64,000 nt of DNA from Bacteroidota bacterium. GTDB taxonomy: Bacteria > Bacteroidota > Bacteroidia > Bacteroidales > P3. The DNA is taken from NCBI GenBank assembly GCA_023415495.1, contig JAEZKK010000023.1:145323-209322 (forward strand). The letters run 5' to 3'. Positions 9,303-57,709 of this stretch are shown here, piece after piece. The stretch's first letter is position 1; the number at the start of each line of letters is the position of its first letter. Under the pieces are notes generated by a model. That model worked only from the letters and a program-made list of their open reading frames with translations. It was not told the DNA's origin and did no database searches. The position numbers and the translations under genes are program-made.

Positions 9303-11009
9303 CTATTCATAATATTCATATTCAAACCTTACCAAATAAGAAGGATGTCTTTCTTCAACAAGATTTCCTATATCATCATACTTATAATAAACATTTTCAA
9401 TATTAGAATTGTCGCTATATACTATTGTATAATCCTTGCTAAAGGGTTTGTATTTATAATCTGATATTATAATATTCCCTTCGTTATCATTAATAATTCC
9501 TCTTATTAGTTTGCCTTTTGAGTTATAGAAAAAATTAATTTTTGAAGAAAAATAAGGATAATTATAAGCGTACTCTATTAGTCTTTTATTTGAATCGTAT
9601 TTCCAATTTTTAATTATACAATAATCTAAAGTATTTCCTTTATATATTTCTTCTCTTTTATAAACTAAAGTATCATTATCATATTTATATATTTCTCTCC
9701 TATTGTTATATCCTATTATTTCTTTTTCAATTAATCTTTTTTTATCATCATACTTATATGTAGTTTGAGGAGTTTTAGTCTCGCAATCAAATCTTTTTAT
9801 TAATAATCCATTTTCATAAATCAAAGTATCAATGCTAATGTAATTTGAAAATAATTCTGGAGTTTTAATAAGAATAATTTGCTTTTCATCATTGTAGTTA
9901 TATTCTTCAACATTACTCTCTCTCCATTTAATATTTTCTCCTACACGATCTTCATAATAAAATCTTACTTTACTTGATAATGTATAATCGTTATTATATA
10001 AATATTCAATTTTATATGTTTGGTTATATGAGTCAGTTGGTTCATCAAATATCTCCTGAAGTATTTTATCATTTTTATATATGAATCTATGTATTATTGG
10101 AGGAGCATCTGCTCTATAAGTTTTGCTTTCAACCAATCTTCCTTTTTTATCTAATCTAACAACTTCTTTTTTTGGTTTTGTATAGATATCCCTTTCCCAA
10201 CTAATAGTTTGGGATTTTCTGTTTAAACTATCATAAACATAAGTCTTTGTATTAGTTAATTCATTTCTAAAATATGATTTCTTTTGTATTAAATCATTTT
10301 GAGAGTTATAAATATATATAGTTTTCTCTAAACGTTTATTTTTAAGATATTCTATTTCTTTTATTAGATTTCCTTTTTTATCGTACTTATATAGAGTGTA
10401 TTCTCCCTTTGTTTCAGGTGAATAATCTTTAATCTTTTGTCCTTTATTATTGTATTCTATTATGTAACTACTAAATTCAACATTATTATTATAACTATAT
10501 TTAGATGTGTTATTTTTATTAGAATCATAAGTGTACAAAACTCTATGTGAAAACTTACCATTAAAATCTGTAAGTTCTTCAATTAGATTATCAAATCTAT
10601 CGTATTTATAAGTTTTTATTGATTGGATACTATCATTACGATAATCCTCCTTTTTTATACGTTTACCTTTTGAATCATAGTAATACTTAGAAATTTCTAC
10701 ATAATCTCTTTTAGTATATGCACTATCTAAAACAATATTTAGATTTTCATCAAAGTATTTTACAGTTTTATTGATTCTATGATTTTTCTTGTGGATTTTC
10801 GTTTCTTTTAAGTTTTGGAAATCTACAAAGATTGATTCAGAAGGTGTTATTGTATCTAAATAGCCATCTTTGCTGTCCTCGTATGTCTTTTTGTAAAAAG
10901 ATTTTACTTTTCCCTTGAGTTTATAATCGTTTAATGATTGAGCATTAGCCAAGATAGTTAAGCAAAGAAAAACTATTAATCCCAAGAATGCTTTTAAAGG
11001 AATACTCAT
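9303..11009 (-). CDS. secreted YD/RHS-like repeat protein (no toxin domain recognised)
   Basis: 568 aa with a signal peptide (…LTILANAQS). Many degenerate Y.YD..GNLI-type repeats (YKYDRFDNLIEE, YKYDKKGNLIKE, YVYDSLNRK). Confidence 0.6.
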   Translation of the reverse strand: MSIPLKAFLGLIVFLCLTILANAQSLNDYKLKGKVKSFYKKTYEDSKDGYLDTITPSESIFVDFQNLKETKIHKKNHRINKTVKYFDENLNIVLDSAYTKRDYVEISKYYYDSKGKRIKKEDYRNDSIQSIKTYKYDRFDNLIEELTDFNGKFSHRVLYTYDSNKNNTSKYSYNNNVEFSSYIIEYNNKGQKIKDYSPETKGEYTLYKYDKKGNLIKEIEYLKNKRLEKTIYIYNSQNDLIQKKSYFRNELTNTKTYVYDSLNRKSQTISWERDIYTKPKKEVVRLDKKGRLVESKTYRADAPPIIHRFIYKNDKILQEIFDEPTDSYNQTYKIEYLYNNDYTLSSKVRFYYEDRVGENIKWRESNVEEYNYNDEKQIILIKTPELFSNYISIDTLIYENGLLIKRFDCETKTPQTTYKYDDKKRLIEKEIIGYNNRREIYKYDNDTLVYKREEIYKGNTLDYCIIKNWKYDSNKRLIEYAYNYPYFSSKINFFYNSKGKLIRGIINDNEGNIIISDYKYKPFSKDYTIVYSDNSNIENVYYKYDDIGNLVEERHPSYLVRFEYEYYE

Positions 11010-11106: not shown

Positions 11107-11406
11107 AATTTGATTCTATTTTAATATAATGCCATTATACTTGCAATATAATGGCATTATTCTTACGATATAATGGCATTATATTAGATTGGAATTTGAT
11201 AAGAGTAGATTGAGGCTTGATTATGCGAGTTTTAAACTTGATTTAAAAGCTTGGTTTTTGGGATACAACCGATGGTTTTGTTGAATTATTGTATTGAATA
11301 AGGCTTTTTCTCATCGTTTCATCCAATTAATACTCTCTAACCTTTTGTTAATTAACATTTGAGTTAAGAGAACTATCTCTTGATTCTACGAAAATAGAAT
11401 CAAATT
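11107..11406. mobile_element. MITE-like element C: 16-bp perfect terminal inverted repeats enclosing a 3 x 22-bp TAATG-S-CATTA array
   Basis: AATTTGATTCTATTTT at 11107-11122 has its exact reverse complement at 11391-11406. Dyad cores are centred at 11132, 11154 and 11176. No ORF longer than about 20 aa lies inside. Confidence 0.7.
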
Positions 11407-13257: not shown

Positions 13258-14379
13258 TTAATACTGAAAATCTATTACAAGTAGTTCTGATATAGAGCCT
13301 ATTCTATATTGTGGTCCCCAAATTCCCAAACCAGAGGATACGTAGTAATGAGTATTGGTCTTTTTCTTATATCCAAAAGGAAGCTCATACATAAGTTTCT
13401 CTATAATATTCACAGGAAAGAATTGACCATTATGAGTATGACCAGAGATTTGAATATCTATATTTAATTTTTCAGCCTCTGAGAGATTATATGGCTGGTG
13501 ATCTAATAGAATGGCAGGAAGATTAGCATTTAATTTCGTAACTATTTCTTTTAAATCCTTTCTTAAACGGCTGCTCCTATCTTTTCGCCCAATAATATAA
13601 AGGCTATTATCTATAATAACACTTGAATCCAATAAGACTCCAACATTAGCTTTGCGTAAGAAGTCAAAGTTTCTTTCTTTACCCTCTCCATAATAATCGT
13701 GATTTCCACTAACAGCATAAACTCCAAATTTTGTTTTGATGCTTAAAAACTCTTCATCCATTTTTTGAGACTCTACTGGATGCAAATTTCTATCTACGAT
13801 ATCTCCGACAAAAAGAACTAAATCCGGATTTTGATAATTAATCAGTTCTACGTATTTCTTAAACTTATTCTTATTAATATCATGACCAAGATGTAAATCG
13901 CTTGCAGCTACAATCCTTATGCTTTTTCCAAGTTTAGGCTTATTAGACTCAAGGTTTAATTTTGTAATTTGTGGATTATTAAATCTATAATTGCCTATAA
14001 TTAAACTAATCACTATTATCCCAGCACCAATTCCAAAAGCATATAATCGTGTTTGTAAAAACAAATCGTTAGGTAACTTTATCCAGAAACGATCAATCAG
14101 GGAATAAATATCTATCAATACAAATAGCAGGAAGAGATAGATTAGAATAATAAAAAAAGTATATGATATAAAATAAAGGATATTTGCTAATTGAGAGTGA
14201 AGTGTATCCCCATAGCTTAATGTATAGATAAATAATCCAAAAAGCGTTATTGAGCTTATTAGATAAATCCATTTACCAATTTTAAAATCACCGAGTATTT
14301 GAAATCCTCTTGTACTTATATAACTCAATAAAATTCCAAAAAAGATAATTAATACTAATATAAATCCTATGTTTTTCAT
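13258..14379 (-). CDS. membrane-anchored metallophosphoesterase
   Basis: 373 aa. N-terminal transmembrane helices followed by calcineurin-like motifs (SDLHLG, GDIVD, GNHDYY, GHTHNGQ). Confidence 0.8.
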   Translation of the reverse strand: MKNIGFILVLIIFFGILLSYISTRGFQILGDFKIGKWIYLISSITLFGLFIYTLSYGDTLHSQLANILYFISYTFFIILIYLFLLFVLIDIYSLIDRFWIKLPNDLFLQTRLYAFGIGAGIIVISLIIGNYRFNNPQITKLNLESNKPKLGKSIRIVAASDLHLGHDINKNKFKKYVELINYQNPDLVLFVGDIVDRNLHPVESQKMDEEFLSIKTKFGVYAVSGNHDYYGEGKERNFDFLRKANVGVLLDSSVIIDNSLYIIGRKDRSSRLRKDLKEIVTKLNANLPAILLDHQPYNLSEAEKLNIDIQISGHTHNGQFFPVNIIEKLMYELPFGYKKKTNTHYYVSSGLGIWGPQYRIGSISELLVIDFQY

Positions 14380-22785: not shown

Positions 22786-22981
22786 CAATTGTAAGGATAG
22801 AACTCTAATTTCCTTATATAAATCACCCCATTTTGTAAAACTACATTATGGTAGCTACCATAAGAGGCGTGTGGTAGGTACCATAACACCCTTGTGGTAG
22901 GTACCATAATGCTCGTGTGGTAGCTACCATAGTGAGATTGTAATCAAAGAAGAATACTTTGTAATCAAATAAGAAAAGTAT

Positions 22982-23015
22982 GGAATCAAATAAGAATTCT
23001 TTGTTATTTGATTCC
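22982..23015 (+). terminator. 12-bp perfect hairpin closing element B; may also terminate the convergent T9SS gene
   Basis: GGAATCAAATAA-GAATTCTTTG-TTATTTGATTCC. AT-rich, with only weak T-runs on both sides. Confidence 0.45.
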
Positions 23016-23033: not shown

Positions 23034-24464
23034 TTAGTTTACGATTAGCTTTTTAGAATTTGAGTATTTTCCACTTCTTAGATTTATAATATAGGTTCCC
23101 TTTCTTAGATTTCTTGTATTAATTACTAATTCTACTCTTTCATTTATTGGAGAGGACTTAATATTTTCAACCAATCTGCCTTTTATATCATAAATCAAAA
23201 TATCTAAGTCCTGGTTCAAGCCCTCAACCACAAGTTTTGCCTCAGTATTTGTAGGATTTGGATAAAGAAGAAAATCTTTTCCGTTAAAGCTAATCCCTTC
23301 TCCAAGAGAAACAATAATGTTTTTCATAGAATAATACAAATATGTTGAGTCATCACTCCAAGAATTTAAATCATCTGGGAATCCACTCGAATAAACAATA
23401 TTAGTAAGCATATTATTATAATTATCGAAGAATTCTGGCTTCATATAACCCAATTTGTCAGAAAATTGCAAAACATCATCTGAGGTATAATTATAATCAA
23501 ATAAGTTAATATACTTTTGAGTGCAAGCCATTTCTTGATTGTAATTAGTATATGTATTAATAAGGGTTTGATTATTGTTATTATCGTAATACAATGAATC
23601 AATGCTGTGAAGAACAAAGCCATCTGTTGCGTTGTGCATAAAATTATTTCTTGAAACCATTAAATTATTAGGATTGTATGTTAATGTTTGTTTCATTGAT
23701 GGCTTCCACAAGCTATCTTGATAAGCACTATAGTTTTCCATTAAGATTTGAGTAAGCAAATTATTAGAATTATAAGAGTTAAATGTTTTTGAACCATAAC
23801 TTAGCTCTCCTTCACTATTATAATACTCATTTTGTATATGTACTGGATTATTATTATTATCGTATAAATACTCAGTCTTAGAGCCAAGTTCTTCAATCCC
23901 TTCATTTTTATAATATGTTTCTATTTTGGTAATTAAATTGCTTTCATTGTAAAGGTAATCTGTCTTTCCATAATAAATCCAATAATTAGAGTCAAGGTCA
24001 AAAAAGTAATTTTCTTCTTTAGTAAGGAGATTATTTGTGTAATCCGAAAGAGTTTTCTGATTAAATAACCAGGCACTATCTATAAAAATACTCATTATCT
24101 CAGATATTTTGTTTCCGTTATTATCATAAAGATAATCGATATTCTCATGTTGGCGGAAAAAATTAGAGTCATAGTCCCAAATATAGTATAGAGTGTTAAT
24201 TAGATTCTCATTATTGTCATAAGTGTAAACATATTTACTGAATACATCCTTCATTAGGATTAATCTCCCGTATGAATCGTATTCATAAATTGTGGGTTCA
24301 TTTGGAGCATAGGCGTATGCGACGCTATCAAGCGCCATTAATTGGACATTTGCCTTTGATAAAATCTCTGATTTTGATTTGTTTTTCTCTGCTTTGCTTT
24401 GAGAAAAACTATTTTGTGAACCAATAATAATGAAACACAAAACAAGGAAGTAAATCTTTTTCAT
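23034..24464 (-). CDS. secreted YD-like repeat protein with T9SS C-terminal sorting domain
   Basis: 476 aa with a signal peptide. Carries Y.YD..G.L repeats (YEYDSYGRLI, YTYDNNENLI, YLYDNNGNKI). The C-terminus (LYPNPTN...LIYDIKGRLV...GTYIINL...KKLIVN) matches the Por/T9SS CTD pattern. Confidence 0.7.
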   Translation of the reverse strand: MKKIYFLVLCFIIIGSQNSFSQSKAEKNKSKSEILSKANVQLMALDSVAYAYAPNEPTIYEYDSYGRLILMKDVFSKYVYTYDNNENLINTLYYIWDYDSNFFRQHENIDYLYDNNGNKISEIMSIFIDSAWLFNQKTLSDYTNNLLTKEENYFFDLDSNYWIYYGKTDYLYNESNLITKIETYYKNEGIEELGSKTEYLYDNNNNPVHIQNEYYNSEGELSYGSKTFNSYNSNNLLTQILMENYSAYQDSLWKPSMKQTLTYNPNNLMVSRNNFMHNATDGFVLHSIDSLYYDNNNNQTLINTYTNYNQEMACTQKYINLFDYNYTSDDVLQFSDKLGYMKPEFFDNYNNMLTNIVYSSGFPDDLNSWSDDSTYLYYSMKNIIVSLGEGISFNGKDFLLYPNPTNTEAKLVVEGLNQDLDILIYDIKGRLVENIKSSPINERVELVINTRNLRKGTYIINLRSGKYSNSKKLIVN

Positions 24465-39022: not shown

Positions 39023-39195
39023 TTTTTTCTTGATTTCAATCTCTAATTCATGGCATGATACTCTGCATATCATGCCATGATATTGTCAGAATCATGGCAT
39101 GATGTTACCGGAATCATGGCATGATGTTGACAGAATCATGCCATGATGTTGAGAACTTCATGGCATGATGTTGAGATTGAAATCAAGAAAAAAAA
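39023..39195. mobile_element. MITE-like element D: 21-bp perfect inverted repeats enclosing a 6 x 22-bp TCATG-S-CATGA array
   Basis: TTTTTTCTTGATTTCAATCTC at 39023-39043 pairs with GAGATTGAAATCAAGAAAAAA at 39173-39193. Core centres at 39053, 39075, 39097, 39119, 39141 and 39163 are exactly 22 bp apart. Confidence 0.8.
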
Positions 39196-48280: not shown

Positions 48281-49969
48281 TTAATAATCGAAACTTGAAC
48301 CCCCTAAAAACTCCCTCATAATTGAAGTTGGAGGTATAAATTCATGACCTATTGTCTTGAAATTTGATAAAAAACTCAATAATCTCTTTGCCTCAGCATA
48401 CTCAACTCTGTTTTGAGGCACTGCATTTAAAAGTGTTTCAGCAAAAGGTTTTAATACTCCTATCTCATATAATAATGAAGAATTAAATATCTCATCTGCG
48501 TTCTCTTGATAAGGGAATATATGCTTCTCTTCTCCATTTCTAACACTTTGCCAACGTGAAAGAGTATCTAAAGCACTATAACCTCTGTAATTATTATCCC
48601 TAACTATTCTTCTTATCAACCTATTATCACTACTACTTATTAAGTTATGTCTATCCAATGATACCTGTGTAAGAGCTGAAACGAAGATATTAAACTTATT
48701 CTTTTTATCTATCTTCTCCGTTAACCTTGGATTGAGTGCATGTATTCCTTCTATAATTAATATAGAATTTCCCTCCATCTTTAATATATGTCCATTATAT
48801 TCTTTCTTACCTGTAATAAAATTAAATTTTGGAATACTTACCTCTTCTGAATTCATAAGCATATTCATTTGGGTATTGAAAAGATCAATATCTAATGCCT
48901 CTAATGCTTCAAAATCATAATTCCCATCTTTATCTCTTGGTGTAAACTCTCTGTCAAGGAAATAATCATCTAAAGATATTTGAACAGGTTTATAACCTAA
49001 GACTGCCAATTGAGTAGATAATCTCCTGCAACTTGTAGTCTTTCCTGATGATGAAGGACCTGCTAATAAAACCATTTTCACATCTTCTCCCCTTTTATGA
49101 ATTGAGTCAGCAATATTGGAGTATTTCTTTTCATGCAAAGCTTCAGAAATTTGAATAAGTTTTATCTCATTTTTTTTCTCAACAACCTTGTTTAATTCAG
49201 AAACATAAGGAGTCCCCAATATATGCACCCACTGCTCATATTCTTGAAATACAGAAAACATTTTCCTTTGCTTACTCCTGCCATTTGATAATTCCTTAGG
49301 GTTTTTATTATTTGGCATTATCAACATCATGCCTTTATCGAAACTAACTAAATCAAAGACTTCCAGATAGGATGTAGAAGGAACAAGCTCATAATAAAAA
49401 TGATTAACTGTATTTCCTAAATAGTCCACATTTGCATATAATCTATTGAGTGTTTTAATTAGTTCTGACTTTTCTCTCATCCCCTTTTCCTCATATAATC
49501 CTATAGCATTTTCAGCTGGAATTATTTCTTTAGTGAATGGAATATTTTCTATCACTAATTCCCTCATTCTATTCTTAATCCTTTCTATCAATTCAATATC
49601 TAAATCCTTATCTATCTTCTCTATCTCTGCATAGAAACCATTTGACATAGAATGACGAATAATTAATTCTGATTTAGGAAGGATTTCTTTAGTTGCTTTA
49701 TACAATAAGAACATAAGACTCATTGCATACATCCTTCTTCCATTTACATTATTAATATCAATAAACTCTATTGTTTTTGGAATAAAGATTTTATAGTTAA
49801 GGTTCTGAACCTTATTATTAATATAGGCACCAAGTATTGGAAACTCGTTTTTTAAATTAGCAATATCAATTATCTGACCTATTGTTATCCCTGCCTTAAC
49901 TCTAAGAGTAGTATTTGTATTTTTACAAATTACTTCTATTTCATTCACTTCTTTCTTTTCTTCATTCAT
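48281..49969 (-). CDS. uridine-kinase-like nucleoside kinase with N-terminal TGS-like extension
   Basis: 562 aa. A P-loop (LAGPSSSGKTT) lies in the C-terminal half with PRK/uridine-kinase-like spacing. The start is only 12 nt downstream of tcdA. Confidence 0.6.
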   Translation of the reverse strand: MNEEKKEVNEIEVICKNTNTTLRVKAGITIGQIIDIANLKNEFPILGAYINNKVQNLNYKIFIPKTIEFIDINNVNGRRMYAMSLMFLLYKATKEILPKSELIIRHSMSNGFYAEIEKIDKDLDIELIERIKNRMRELVIENIPFTKEIIPAENAIGLYEEKGMREKSELIKTLNRLYANVDYLGNTVNHFYYELVPSTSYLEVFDLVSFDKGMMLIMPNNKNPKELSNGRSKQRKMFSVFQEYEQWVHILGTPYVSELNKVVEKKNEIKLIQISEALHEKKYSNIADSIHKRGEDVKMVLLAGPSSSGKTTSCRRLSTQLAVLGYKPVQISLDDYFLDREFTPRDKDGNYDFEALEALDIDLFNTQMNMLMNSEEVSIPKFNFITGKKEYNGHILKMEGNSILIIEGIHALNPRLTEKIDKKNKFNIFVSALTQVSLDRHNLISSSDNRLIRRIVRDNNYRGYSALDTLSRWQSVRNGEEKHIFPYQENADEIFNSSLLYEIGVLKPFAETLLNAVPQNRVEYAEAKRLLSFLSNFKTIGHEFIPPTSIMREFLGGSSFDY

Positions 49970-56204: not shown

Positions 56205-56624
56205 CTATTCATCTTTCGTTACCAATCCCTTTGGTGGTTTGCGCATATTGTCGAATTTCATTTCTTTTATGGCTCTTGTTAGGGAACGTGCGGCTTTAAA
56301 GGTTACTTTTGTTGCTTTAACTTTCTTCGGATTAATATCTTTAGGGTCGTCATAGCCTTCACTGGTTACCCAAACTCCAAACACTCCAATCTTTTTCAAG
56401 TTTACATTTTCACCTTGCATTAAATGATATTCAATACGATTGGAAAGTGCAGCCACCATCCCCAATACGTCTGGTTCAGAGAAAGATGACATTTCTGACA
56501 CCTCTCTTACTAAAGTTTCTTCATCAACAACTCTTGATGTTCTTGGACATGCATAGTATTTTTCTACAACATTTCCCTCAGCATCTTTAAATTTTCTTTT
56601 CCAAATTCCGAATATTTTACTCAT
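56205..56624 (-). CDS. Bacteroidota-type long HU-like DNA-binding protein
   Basis: 139 aa. The central segment (L..G..V.L..IG.F.......G) resembles the HU beta-arm region. The layout matches the HU-related family restricted to Bacteroidota (from memory). Confidence 0.7.
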   Translation of the reverse strand: MSKIFGIWKRKFKDAEGNVVEKYYACPRTSRVVDEETLVREVSEMSSFSEPDVLGMVAALSNRIEYHLMQGENVNLKKIGVFGVWVTSEGYDDPKDINPKKVKATKVTFKAARSLTRAIKEMKFDNMRKPPKGLVTKDE

Positions 56625-56728
56625 AATCAGATAATTTTAATTTTATACTTAGTTTTAATCTTATTTATTCCCAATTCAAATTGAATTAATCCTATTTCAA
56701 ACTATTTATACAAGGTTTCTATCTCCAA

Positions 56729-56899
56729 TTCATATAATGATATAGCAAATATCATGCCATGAATTAGTTGAAATCATGGCATGAATTGGTCGGATTCATG
56801 GCATGATTCTAAGCAATTCATGGCATGAAATGGAGAACATCATGGCATGAATTCGTGTTCATCATGACATGATTCCGAGATCGAAATCAAATAAAAAAA
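56729..56899. repeat. element E: 7 x 22-bp TCATG-S-CATGA array (first and last units degenerate), paralog of D, upstream of the HU-like gene
   Basis: Core centres at 56735, 56757, 56779, 56801, 56823, 56845 and 56867. The right flank GAGATCGAAATCAAATAAAAAAAGTT...CTTGAT aligns with D's right flank. The left arm is degenerate (TTTCTATCTC versus GAGATCGAAA). Confidence 0.8.
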
Positions 56900-56938
56900 G
56901 TTAAAAACTTGATATAATTAGCTTTATACTTGATTTGC

Positions 56939-57709
56939 TTAGCGTTTAACTTGATTTTGTCTTGCAAATTCGGCACAAATTATCGAGGTTGCTATGCTTG
57001 CGTTTAGGCTTTCGATTTTTTGGTCTAAGGAAAAGCATGGTATGGTGATTGGATTGGTAATTAAAGGCAGGATTTCCTTGCTAATGCCGTGTGATTCGCT
57101 ACCTATTACTATTATTCCTTGATTTGGGAGGTCTTGGGTGTAGATATTCTTTCCTCCTTGCACAACGGTGCCAAAAACTTTATACTTCTTATCTAAGACT
57201 TTTAAATATTCCTCAAGATTTTGGCAAGTAACATTTACCCTAAAGAGGGAACCCATTGTGGATTGCACGGTTTTGGGGTTATATAATTCCACAGAATCTT
57301 CCGAACATATAATATCTTTTATACCAAACCAATCGGCAAGGCGAATAATTGTACCAAGATTGCCTGGGTCCTTAATTCCATCCAAAGCAATAACCAATCT
57401 ATTTTCGTTTTCAATAGGTTTGTTAGGAATATTCTCCAATAAGGCTATAACTTTATTAGGAGTGGAGAGATTAGATAGCTTTTGAAGCTCATCACTATTA
57501 ACAATATAAACCTCATCTGCAATATCTTTCAATTCCTTTTCCCTATCCTGAATATAATCCTCAAGAGCAAAAACAGCCAATATCCTCCTCTTGCTTTCTA
57601 TTAGCTCATCCACCATCTTAACTCCTTCAACCAAGAACCTACCCTCCTCTTTCCTATGCTTAAGCGATTTAAGCAACGAAATCTTTTTAATCAAAGCCTT
57701 TGAAATCAT
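56939..57709 (-). CDS. TrmH/SpoU family RNA 2'-O-methyltransferase
   Basis: SpoU motifs (LDGI.DPGNLGTIIR, IGSE..G) and an N-terminal substrate-binding domain. ATG at 57709 is used; the track's TTG at 57736 lies inside the -7 box. Confidence 0.8.
   Translation of the reverse strand: MISKALIKKISLLKSLKHRKEEGRFLVEGVKMVDELIESKRRILAVFALEDYIQDREKELKDIADEVYIVNSDELQKLSNLSTPNKVIALLENIPNKPIENENRLVIALDGIKDPGNLGTIIRLADWFGIKDIICSEDSVELYNPKTVQSTMGSLFRVNVTCQNLEEYLKVLDKKYKVFGTVVQGGKNIYTQDLPNQGIIVIGSESHGISKEILPLITNPITIPCFSLDQKIESLNASIATSIICAEFARQNQVKR

Follow-up and report, generated by a model that had tools for sequence, protein, structure and literature searches.

Rows of phased short repeats adjoining the gene of a small dimeric DNA binder are known from plasmids: in the parC/ParR system of plasmid R1 and the sopC/SopB system of F, the protein binds cooperatively and autoregulates. 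Some enterobacterial BIMEs (the IHF-binding BIME-1, or RIP) serve as binding sites for a nucleoid protein from the HU/IHF family. The REP classes, which are associated with RAYT transposases, are imperfect palindromes of 20-40 nt whose orientation alternates and which bear a GTAG or CGTC tag (PMC3733652). The closest published relative of the arrays described here is the BrickBuilt repeat of P. gingivalis, a member of the same order, Bacteroidales, which consists of 23-nt tandem units with dyad symmetry, is intergenic, occurs in 19 copies, shows promoter activity in E. coli reporters and was presented as a MITE whose ends are IS5-like (Klein et al. 2015, PMC4596501). A short copy of 84 nt, BrickBuilt_14, lies directly upstream of PGN_0872, a gene for a PF00216 DNA-binding protein, and no link to HU-like proteins was drawn in that work (PMC4596501). 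The HU-HIG clade, for its part, was defined by Burroughs et al. [quoted passage not shown]

The window analyzed here, a single stretch of 64 kb, contains five arrays of like build and three core types, one of which, array E, adjoins an HU-HIG gene. We know of no function or DNA target for HU-HIG, a large, fast-evolving family of Bacteroidales, and of no partner for the 22-23-bp minisatellites of P. gingivalis (BrickBuilt). Full-text literature searches yielded no publication in which HU-HIG genes are tied to upstream repeat arrays. Repeats of this class and the protein family have been described before; their conserved pairing and the dimer-site anatomy of the arrays are new.

Array E comprises five TCATGSCATGA cores (at 56752, 56774, 56796, 56818 and 56840) with an exact 22-bp period and a sixth at 56862, TCATGACATGA, which has one mismatch to TCATGSCATGA; these six canonical dyad units span positions 56752-56872. 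The original prediction counted seven units at an exact 22-bp period; the period and six of the cores stand, and the seventh unit (TCATATAATGA at 56730), in register with the others, is degenerate. Together with its spacer TATAGCAAATA, this degenerate unit occupies 56730-56751, is invariant among strains and is kept in species L093, L115 and L127. The coordinates bear out the predicted setting: the array begins 105 nt upstream of the HU-HIG ATG (56624), in a gap of 314 bp to the upstream gene, which is located on the same strand and encodes a SpoU-type RNA methyltransferase. The inner right flank (GAGATCGAAATCAA..AAAAAAGTT..CTTGAT, 56873-56906) contains the first flanking dyad of the AAAC-N3-GTTT class and varies between strain alleles; beyond it lie three CTTGAT units with a 21-bp period (56907-56970, with starts at 56908, 56929 and 56950). 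The third of these overlaps the last codons of the SpoU-type methyltransferase ORF (within 56939-56970), and the flank of array E may be the source of the C-terminus of this protein. The left flank (..CAAACTATTTATACAAGGTTTCTATCTCCAAT, 56686-56729) is degenerate, mirrors the right one and holds ATAGTTTG (56698-56705, minus strand). In the whole window, TCATGSCATGA has 12 matches against 0.88 expected, a count reached in none of 100 shuffles, and every one of these matches falls within array D or array E.

Array D (39048-39168) consists of six TCATGSCATGA units with a 22-bp period between the divergent genes pdxJ and recJ and is enclosed by a 17-bp perfect inverted repeat (left arm TTCTTGATTTCAATCTC at 39027-39043, right arm GAGATTGAAATCAAGAA at 39173-39189). 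The right flanks of D and E indeed align (GAGATYGAAATCAA..AAAAAAGTT..CTTGAT), and D is a paralog of E. The further idea that the two copies could recombine and thereby delete or duplicate the intervening segment is not supported: D and E share no exact direct match longer than 14 bp, and homologous recombination requires some 20-30 bp. The remaining arrays carry other cores, namely (T)ATGGTAGCTACCAT(A) with a 23-bp period in array A (1886-1972; 21-bp flank repeats at 1836-1881), ATATAATGSCATTATA with a 22-bp period in array C (11123-11183), and TGGTAGSTACCA with a 23-bp period in array B, which lies in a convergent gap (22849-22931; flank GAGATTGTAATCAAA, 21-bp repeats at 22938-23004). The core type of array C is also found upstream of the HU-HIG homolog at locus L138. 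A GAGATTG-type junction and 21-bp flank repeats are common to all five arrays, and their neighbours are unrelated housekeeping genes (FolD, UmuC, PrmC, PdxJ/RecJ and SpoU). Arrays C and B also adjoin two RHS-repeat proteins (9303-11009 and 23034-24464), one of which has a T9SS sorting domain.

The likeness to BrickBuilt was assessed here by description (its 23-nt unit was published as a logo only). In both cases, tandem units of 22-23 nt with dyad symmetry combine a conserved half and a variable half, the arrays are always intergenic, multi-copy and located beside housekeeping genes (argS, pdx genes), and the number of units varies between strains. The units of array E run head to tail with the exact 22-bp period, an 11-bp conserved core and a variable mid-spacer. 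A pattern scan for two TCATGSCATGA cores 22 bp apart, with one genome per species, yielded at least 114 stretches, and all 86 arrays with at least three units among the matches listed are intergenic, outside ORFs. By contrast, the leader and tail without repeats, the IS5-like terminal inverted repeats (GAGACCTTTGCA) and the target duplications of BrickBuilt were not found here; the flanks are 21-bp dyad repeats without a sharp end.

Array E resembles parC and sopC in the phased short repeats that adjoin a gene for a small dimeric DNA-binding protein but differs from them in being chromosomal, without a partition NTPase and with dozens of dispersed copies, and in that the neighbouring protein has an HU fold and not that of ribbon-helix-helix proteins or ParB. 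Dispersed intergenic palindromic repeats in mosaic arrays recall REP/BIME elements, an assignment that we reject because the dyads are perfect over 11-17 bp (11 bp in TCATGSCATGA), follow one another head to tail with a strict 22-bp period and carry no GTAG or CGTC tag. CRISPR arrays have repeats of ~23-55 bp, unique spacers of ~21-72 bp, a leader and cas genes; with repeats of 11 bp, related spacers of 11 bp and scanned neighbours that are housekeeping genes and not cas, the arrays described here are not CRISPR. The IHF site has the asymmetric consensus WATCAANNNNTTR, which, as judged by eye, is not matched by the symmetric cores or by the flank, where AATCAA ATAA AAA lacks the TTR.

The constraints on the units are symmetric. 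Among 390 pooled units, the central base is C in 208, G in 178, A in 3 and T in 1, that is, G or C in 386, in either orientation, and the spacer profile is mirror-symmetric (W/T/Y at positions 1-3 versus R/A/W at positions 9-11), which indicates that the constrained site is the 17-bp dyad RAW-TCATGSCATGA-WTY, with ~5 free bases between sites. When both flanks of the arrays were aligned outward from the array (144 array ends), a consensus mirrored on both sides emerged, tTT.GAgATtaAA.C...GTtaAAatAGTTt.AAAC...GTTTTA.tAG.TTaAAAC...GTTTTA, in which each flank holds ~4 dyads of the TTAAAAC-N3-GTTTTAA class with centres 23, 21, 21 and 21 bp apart and in which A- and T-tracts recur at about the helical repeat. 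The information in the flanks fades gradually, reaching background by ~90-100 bp from the array, and no sharp end, terminal repeat or target duplication was found in the 144 aligned ends. The whole element is a row of 10-15 dyads over ~300 bp on one helix face, with strong central sites and weak AT-rich outer sites.

The gene downstream of array E (56205-56624, minus strand) encodes a protein of 139 aa that belongs to the HU-HIG family: it matches PF18291 (E 5.9e-22, 78.5 bits against a cut-off of 26.2) and also PF00216, a comparison with HU chains of the PDB agrees with an HU-fold protein, and its structure model (pLDDT 89) has the HU fold, with the HU-HIG structure 4FMR as the best fold match. 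According to the model, an extra N-terminal beta-hairpin rich in K and R (WKRKFK) is added to the HU fold. The arm-tip proline is invariant among the HU-HIG orthologs, and where HU has basic arms, those of HU-HIG are acidic and short (EGYDDPKDINPKK). The neighbour of array E is thus a member of the HU-HIG clade (PMC5499826, 4FMR), and the divergence of this family is matched by the diversity of the array cores. The conserved upstream arrays described below differ from the published picture of the clade in that they constitute a linkage in non-coding DNA, which is invisible to gene-neighbourhood analysis.

The HU-HIG ortholog forms the largest neighbour cluster of the 86 arrays, and no other gene recurs beside the arrays, in both cases among the matches listed. 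The clustered orthologs come from five species, are 58-81% identical to the window protein and always have the array upstream; despite this degree of protein divergence, the orthologous arrays keep perfect TCATGSCATGA cores at 22 bp, with spacers that diverge. When HU-HIG homologs were instead fetched by protein, such that the DNA pattern had no part in the selection, 17 of the 19 scorable lineages (100% to 27% identity) were found to have a dyad array with a 21-23-bp period 60-280 nt upstream, in 15 cases clearly; some of these lineages depend on one another, since orthologs share the arrangement by descent. The original prediction had proposed a link between the HU-like gene and the dyad array and a genome survey of HU-like paralogs; that survey supports the link, with cores that differ between paralogs. 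Accordingly, the upstream sites are conserved across orthologs and change with the protein. Exceptions and unscorable loci comprise a P. nigrescens homolog (L147) with no upstream array, a Treponema homolog (L150) with an ambiguous upstream region, and L126 and L128, where an IS-like end separates the gene from the place of the array. Downstream of the HU-HIG homologs, different lineages have different genes.

The cores change with the protein clade. At 58-100% identity to the window protein, the lineages (L125, L127, L129, L130 and L131) have 2-7 TCATGSCATGA units; in the other lineages, the upstream arrays consist of 4 x ATCATGSCATGAT (L136, 67%), 3 x TATAATGSCATTATA (L138, 57%), 4 x AAACAATGSCATTGTTT followed by GAGATTGAAAC (L155, 56%), 3 x CAAGARTGSCAYTCTTG with inverted flank repeats (L133, 41%), AAGAGTGGCACTCTT with a 23-bp period (L144, 39%; a weaker case), 3 x AAAGATG-YR-CATCTTT (L141, 37%), 4 x GAAATGSCATTTC (L143, 36%), 4 x TTATGGT-N3-ACCATAA (L139, 34%) and 4 x GTAATGGCATTAC (L132, 33%). 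Proteins with at least 58% identity go with TCATGSCATGA and those with 51-57% with xAATGSCATTx (L138, L155), the two clades being separated by C versus A at core position +/-4. Two homologs with the cores CAAGARTGSCAYTCTTG (P0025) and TTATGGT-N3-ACCATAA (P0054), whose entries agree in the length of the longest contig (226,122 bases), may be paralogs of one genome with different cores. Most cores upstream of HU-HIG genes keep an ATG-S-CAT centre. The arrangement extends to cultured species, B. finegoldii (L148; ~30% to the HU protein of query L034), with 4 x TCAYGGCCRTGA, and P. distasonis (L149; ~27% to the same query), with 4 x TTCAC-N4-GTGAA; a second HU gene of P. distasonis has upstream dyads with a 22-bp period, a weaker case. 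Across 200 kb of P. distasonis, just two HU family genes are annotated, and each of them has one of the ~9 arrays with a period of 22-23 upstream; an HU-HIG paralog of this species, WP_008779936, is located upstream of rpsL. Arrays detected through the DNA pattern only in GC-richer gut MAGs (L034, L072 and L078) also lie 140-160 nt upstream of distant HU-HIG genes, and their flank repeats have an entirely different sequence (GGCAACCACCATTTCCGAACAA) in the same inverted arrangement.

As anticipated from array D, the array family also occurs without an HU neighbour; indeed, the majority of the TCATG arrays, 81 of 86 among the matches listed, do not adjoin an HU gene. About ten uncultured MAGs of low GC, labelled 'Bacteroidales bacterium', account for most of the listed stretches; each of them has numerous arrays of 2-7 units, and many arrays share their position in two or three MAGs. 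The neighbours that were read are housekeeping genes, which, judged by eye, presumably encode ArgRS, ClpS, RuvA, a XerD-like recombinase, MetRS, UvrB and an ABC-F protein. Arrays occupy 11 divergent, 30 tandem and 7 convergent gaps, against 34, 124 and 22 in the background; this lack of orientation bias implies that most array copies are not gene-specific operators. Where an array is present, the gap is ~250-600 bp longer than in array-free cases.

Several further observations concern repeats of similar appearance. In the cultured gut species P. distasonis (NZ_OY725757.1), dyad arrays with a 22-23-bp period and various cores, such as TTCCTTC-G-GAAGGAA and GAAAC-AAAA-GTTTC, are dispersed over intergenic regions of housekeeping genes (L152:3068-3144, 13531-13630 and 49557-49641; L153:43847-43902; L154:34702-34775). 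Clade-2 MAGs have 7-8 units of AAAAGTCAGTCTTATTGGGGTA with the core AAGTC-W-GACTT and a 22-bp period (L110:416-600 and L062:5150-5320), the nearly identical spacers of which look like a recent expansion. Many arrays or their flanks are interrupted or directly adjoined, at differing offsets and often at contig ends, by an IS-like end with the sequence ..TTGTCAACCTTATTCAGGACGGGTCA or the variant ..TTTTTTCAGGACAAGTCA (L025:1-19, L042:129-147, L049:78-96, L074:4538-4556, L093:1365-1383, L113:77-95, L117:78-96, L124:75-93, L127 and L130), and the ends between array position and HU gene in L126 and L128 are related; no transposase was seen with the IS-like ends at the array loci, and the pattern suggests an insertion sequence with a preference for the arrays. 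The sole match in the viral collection (IMGVR_UViG_3300021077_000037, L146:5722-5870) has four to five GTTCATGSCATGAAC repeats with a 22-23-bp period that lie within or next to a long ORF on the minus strand, as read by eye, with no HU gene nearby; these could be iterons of a mobile element, and given this different context, we reject a phage origin of the arrays. In GC-rich Actinobacteria (L015, L017, L022, L048, L086, L088 and others), a conserved TCATGSCATGA pair 22 bp apart occupies a divergent promoter region, and the adjacent gene encodes a product that begins with ..IAVFGATGQQGGAVVDALL; these two-unit matches look like an ordinary two-site operator in a GC-rich setting and are not considered relatives of the arrays.

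Alleles of array E differ strongly between strains. Over the array and the inner flank (56730-56906), the allele shared by the window and L001 shows 27-31 differences in 177 positions (15-17%) from nine other strains (L002-L010), which amounts to ~30% outside the cores and 1 in 77 within them, whereas third codon positions of the neighbouring genes differ by 2.5-4.2% between strains. For array D, the comparison with other strains gives only 1 difference in 121 nt, so the excess divergence is specific to E and general hypermutation of spacers is rejected as a trait of the family; an exact look-up of the PdxJ protein for the D locus returned the same strain only. The allele of array E may have been imported.

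In line with the original prediction, a perfect TAnnTTTG is absent upstream of the HU gene; its statement that nearly every other transcription unit in the window has such a box was too strong, as 7 of the 24 lack one, and its favoured candidate, ATAGTTTG, belongs to the flank consensus (AAATAGTTT) and deviates from the box at two positions. A better candidate is TCAATTTG (56677-56684, minus strand), a one-off match to the Bacteroidota -7 box, and a near-consensus box, GATATTTG, occurs on the minus strand at 56746-56753 within the conserved last spacer of the array. In five clade-1 species, a TnnnTTTG box is located at exactly -60 from the ATG; the perfect box of clade-2 species is at -45 and follows their array at a distance of ~140 nt. 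Two metatranscriptomes provide contigs that cover the HU gene and end at 56710 and ~56716, 15-20 nt short of unit 7 and upstream of both downstream candidate boxes; these ends adjoin the strain-variable site, where a break in the assembly is possible. Among the assembled contigs of the true metatranscriptome runs, none crosses array E, and no terminator-like site was found between SpoU and HU. Transcription of the HU gene may start in or pass through the array, as the original prediction had it; a start at the array edge and read-through from SpoU are both conceivable. Simple promoter occlusion does not fit, because the arrays lie 100-280 nt from the ATG and, in clade 2, ~140 nt upstream of the box; nor do the arrays appear to be promoter modules, given the unbiased gap orientation and the perfect -7 box of pdxJ far from array D.

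We put the chances at about even that the arrays are cognate platforms for HU-HIG dimers, with autoregulation at the protein's own gene and architectural sites elsewhere. Array E would provide phased high-affinity sites, each a 17-bp RAW-TCATG-S-CATGA-WTY, for a dimeric protein on double-stranded DNA; the 22-bp spacing, equal to two helical turns, would place all dimers on one helix face, and the ~4 weaker AT-rich TTAAAAC-N3-GTTTTAA dyads on each side, with their 21-bp period, would extend the row to ~300 bp. HU-fold proteins are dimers, and upstream sites that change with the protein are typical of a DNA-binding protein that has an operator to itself. The most likely binder would be the HU-HIG product of the adjacent gene, because of the recurrent upstream placement and the switching of cores with the protein clade. 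The array at its own gene would then provide feedback control of HU-HIG, the dozens of other intergenic copies, such as array D, would be architectural or nucleation sites for the same protein, and arrays A, B and C, with their other cores, would belong to other HU-HIG paralogs. This most likely reading agrees with the autoregulation or nucleation proposed in the original prediction, although binding by HU-HIG, cooperativity of the dimers and the direction of regulation are all matters that we infer. The short acidic arms of the protein, the 81 of 86 arrays away from HU genes among the matches listed and the array-free homolog L147 speak against HU-HIG as the binder, and one common factor would explain the shared ATG-S-CAT centre just as well.

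That factor would be a different conserved dimeric regulator that reads the ATG-S-CAT centre and has HU-HIG genes as constant members of its regulon. Most cores do share (A/G)TG-S-CA(T/C) (TCATGSCATGA, TAATGSCATTA, GAAATGSCATTTC, ACAATGSCATTGT and AAGAGTGSCACTCTT), and the HU-HIG arms look ill suited to DNA contact. We nevertheless find this explanation rather doubtful: some arrays lack the centre or space it otherwise (ATGGT-N3/4-ACCAT, AAGTC-W-GACTT, TTCAC-N4-GTGAA), off-centre positions are as strictly conserved within an array type and switch with the HU-HIG clade, and no gene other than HU-HIG recurs next to the arrays among the matches listed. A dimeric protein need not be invoked at all if the arrays act as RNA or single-stranded DNA, with inter-unit hairpins closed by the flanking inverted repeat, for instance as a terminator, a stabiliser, a small RNA or a hairpin for a REP-type transposase. 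As single strands, the elements would fold much better than shuffles, with z = -6.6 for the RNA of E and z = -12 for D as DNA, but this is automatic for rows of palindromes. Neighbouring unit centres are identical in 62% and complementary in 38% of cases, the latter against 50% expected by chance, which argues against selection for inter-unit hairpins and leads us to reject them; the 5-1-5 palindrome cannot form a hairpin of its own; the whole window has no Rfam match at gathering thresholds; and neither a terminator-like site nor a contig across the array from the true metatranscriptome runs was found. Such an element is highly improbable; both the symmetry of the constraints and the conserved cores in different species weigh heavily in favour of a dimeric protein bound to duplex DNA and not of an RNA hairpin.

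The arrays might also be a selfish or neutral dispersed repeat bearing a minisatellite, of the BrickBuilt/MITE type, in which case the copy at the HU gene would be an old insertion or the source copy, without a functional tie. The many copies per genome with homologous flanks, the absence of gap-type bias, the additional ~250-600 bp in array gaps, the change in unit number from 2 to 7 between species and the IS ends in or beside many copies are all as expected of such a repeat, and BrickBuilt itself, with its 23-nt period, dyad symmetry, intergenic location and 19 copies, provides a precedent (PMC4596501). However, the cores remain perfect at orthologous sites down to 58% HU identity while the spacers diverge, which is unlike decaying junk; the gradually fading flanks lack the sharp ends, terminal inverted repeats and target duplications of an inserted element; and the arrays with different cores at HU-HIG homologs down to 27% identity are left unexplained. 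We regard such a selfish or neutral repeat as unlikely.

Beyond this locus, HU-HIG proteins at large may be sequence-specific chromatin proteins, an extension of the platform reading that we offer only tentatively. Each paralog would have a private class of arrays, with a feedback copy at its own gene and tens of dispersed copies, arrays and paralogs would co-diversify, and the whole could amount to a bar-coded nucleoid-organising or defence/decoy system specific to Bacteroidales, of which BrickBuilt would be one instance. The conserved pairing gives both HU-HIG and BrickBuilt a concrete and cheap test in P. distasonis, B. finegoldii and P. gingivalis. If true, this interpretation would add a sequence-specific, array-nucleated layer to the bacterial chromatin of a major gut phylum and would explain intergenic repeats that break metagenome assemblies and attract IS insertions.
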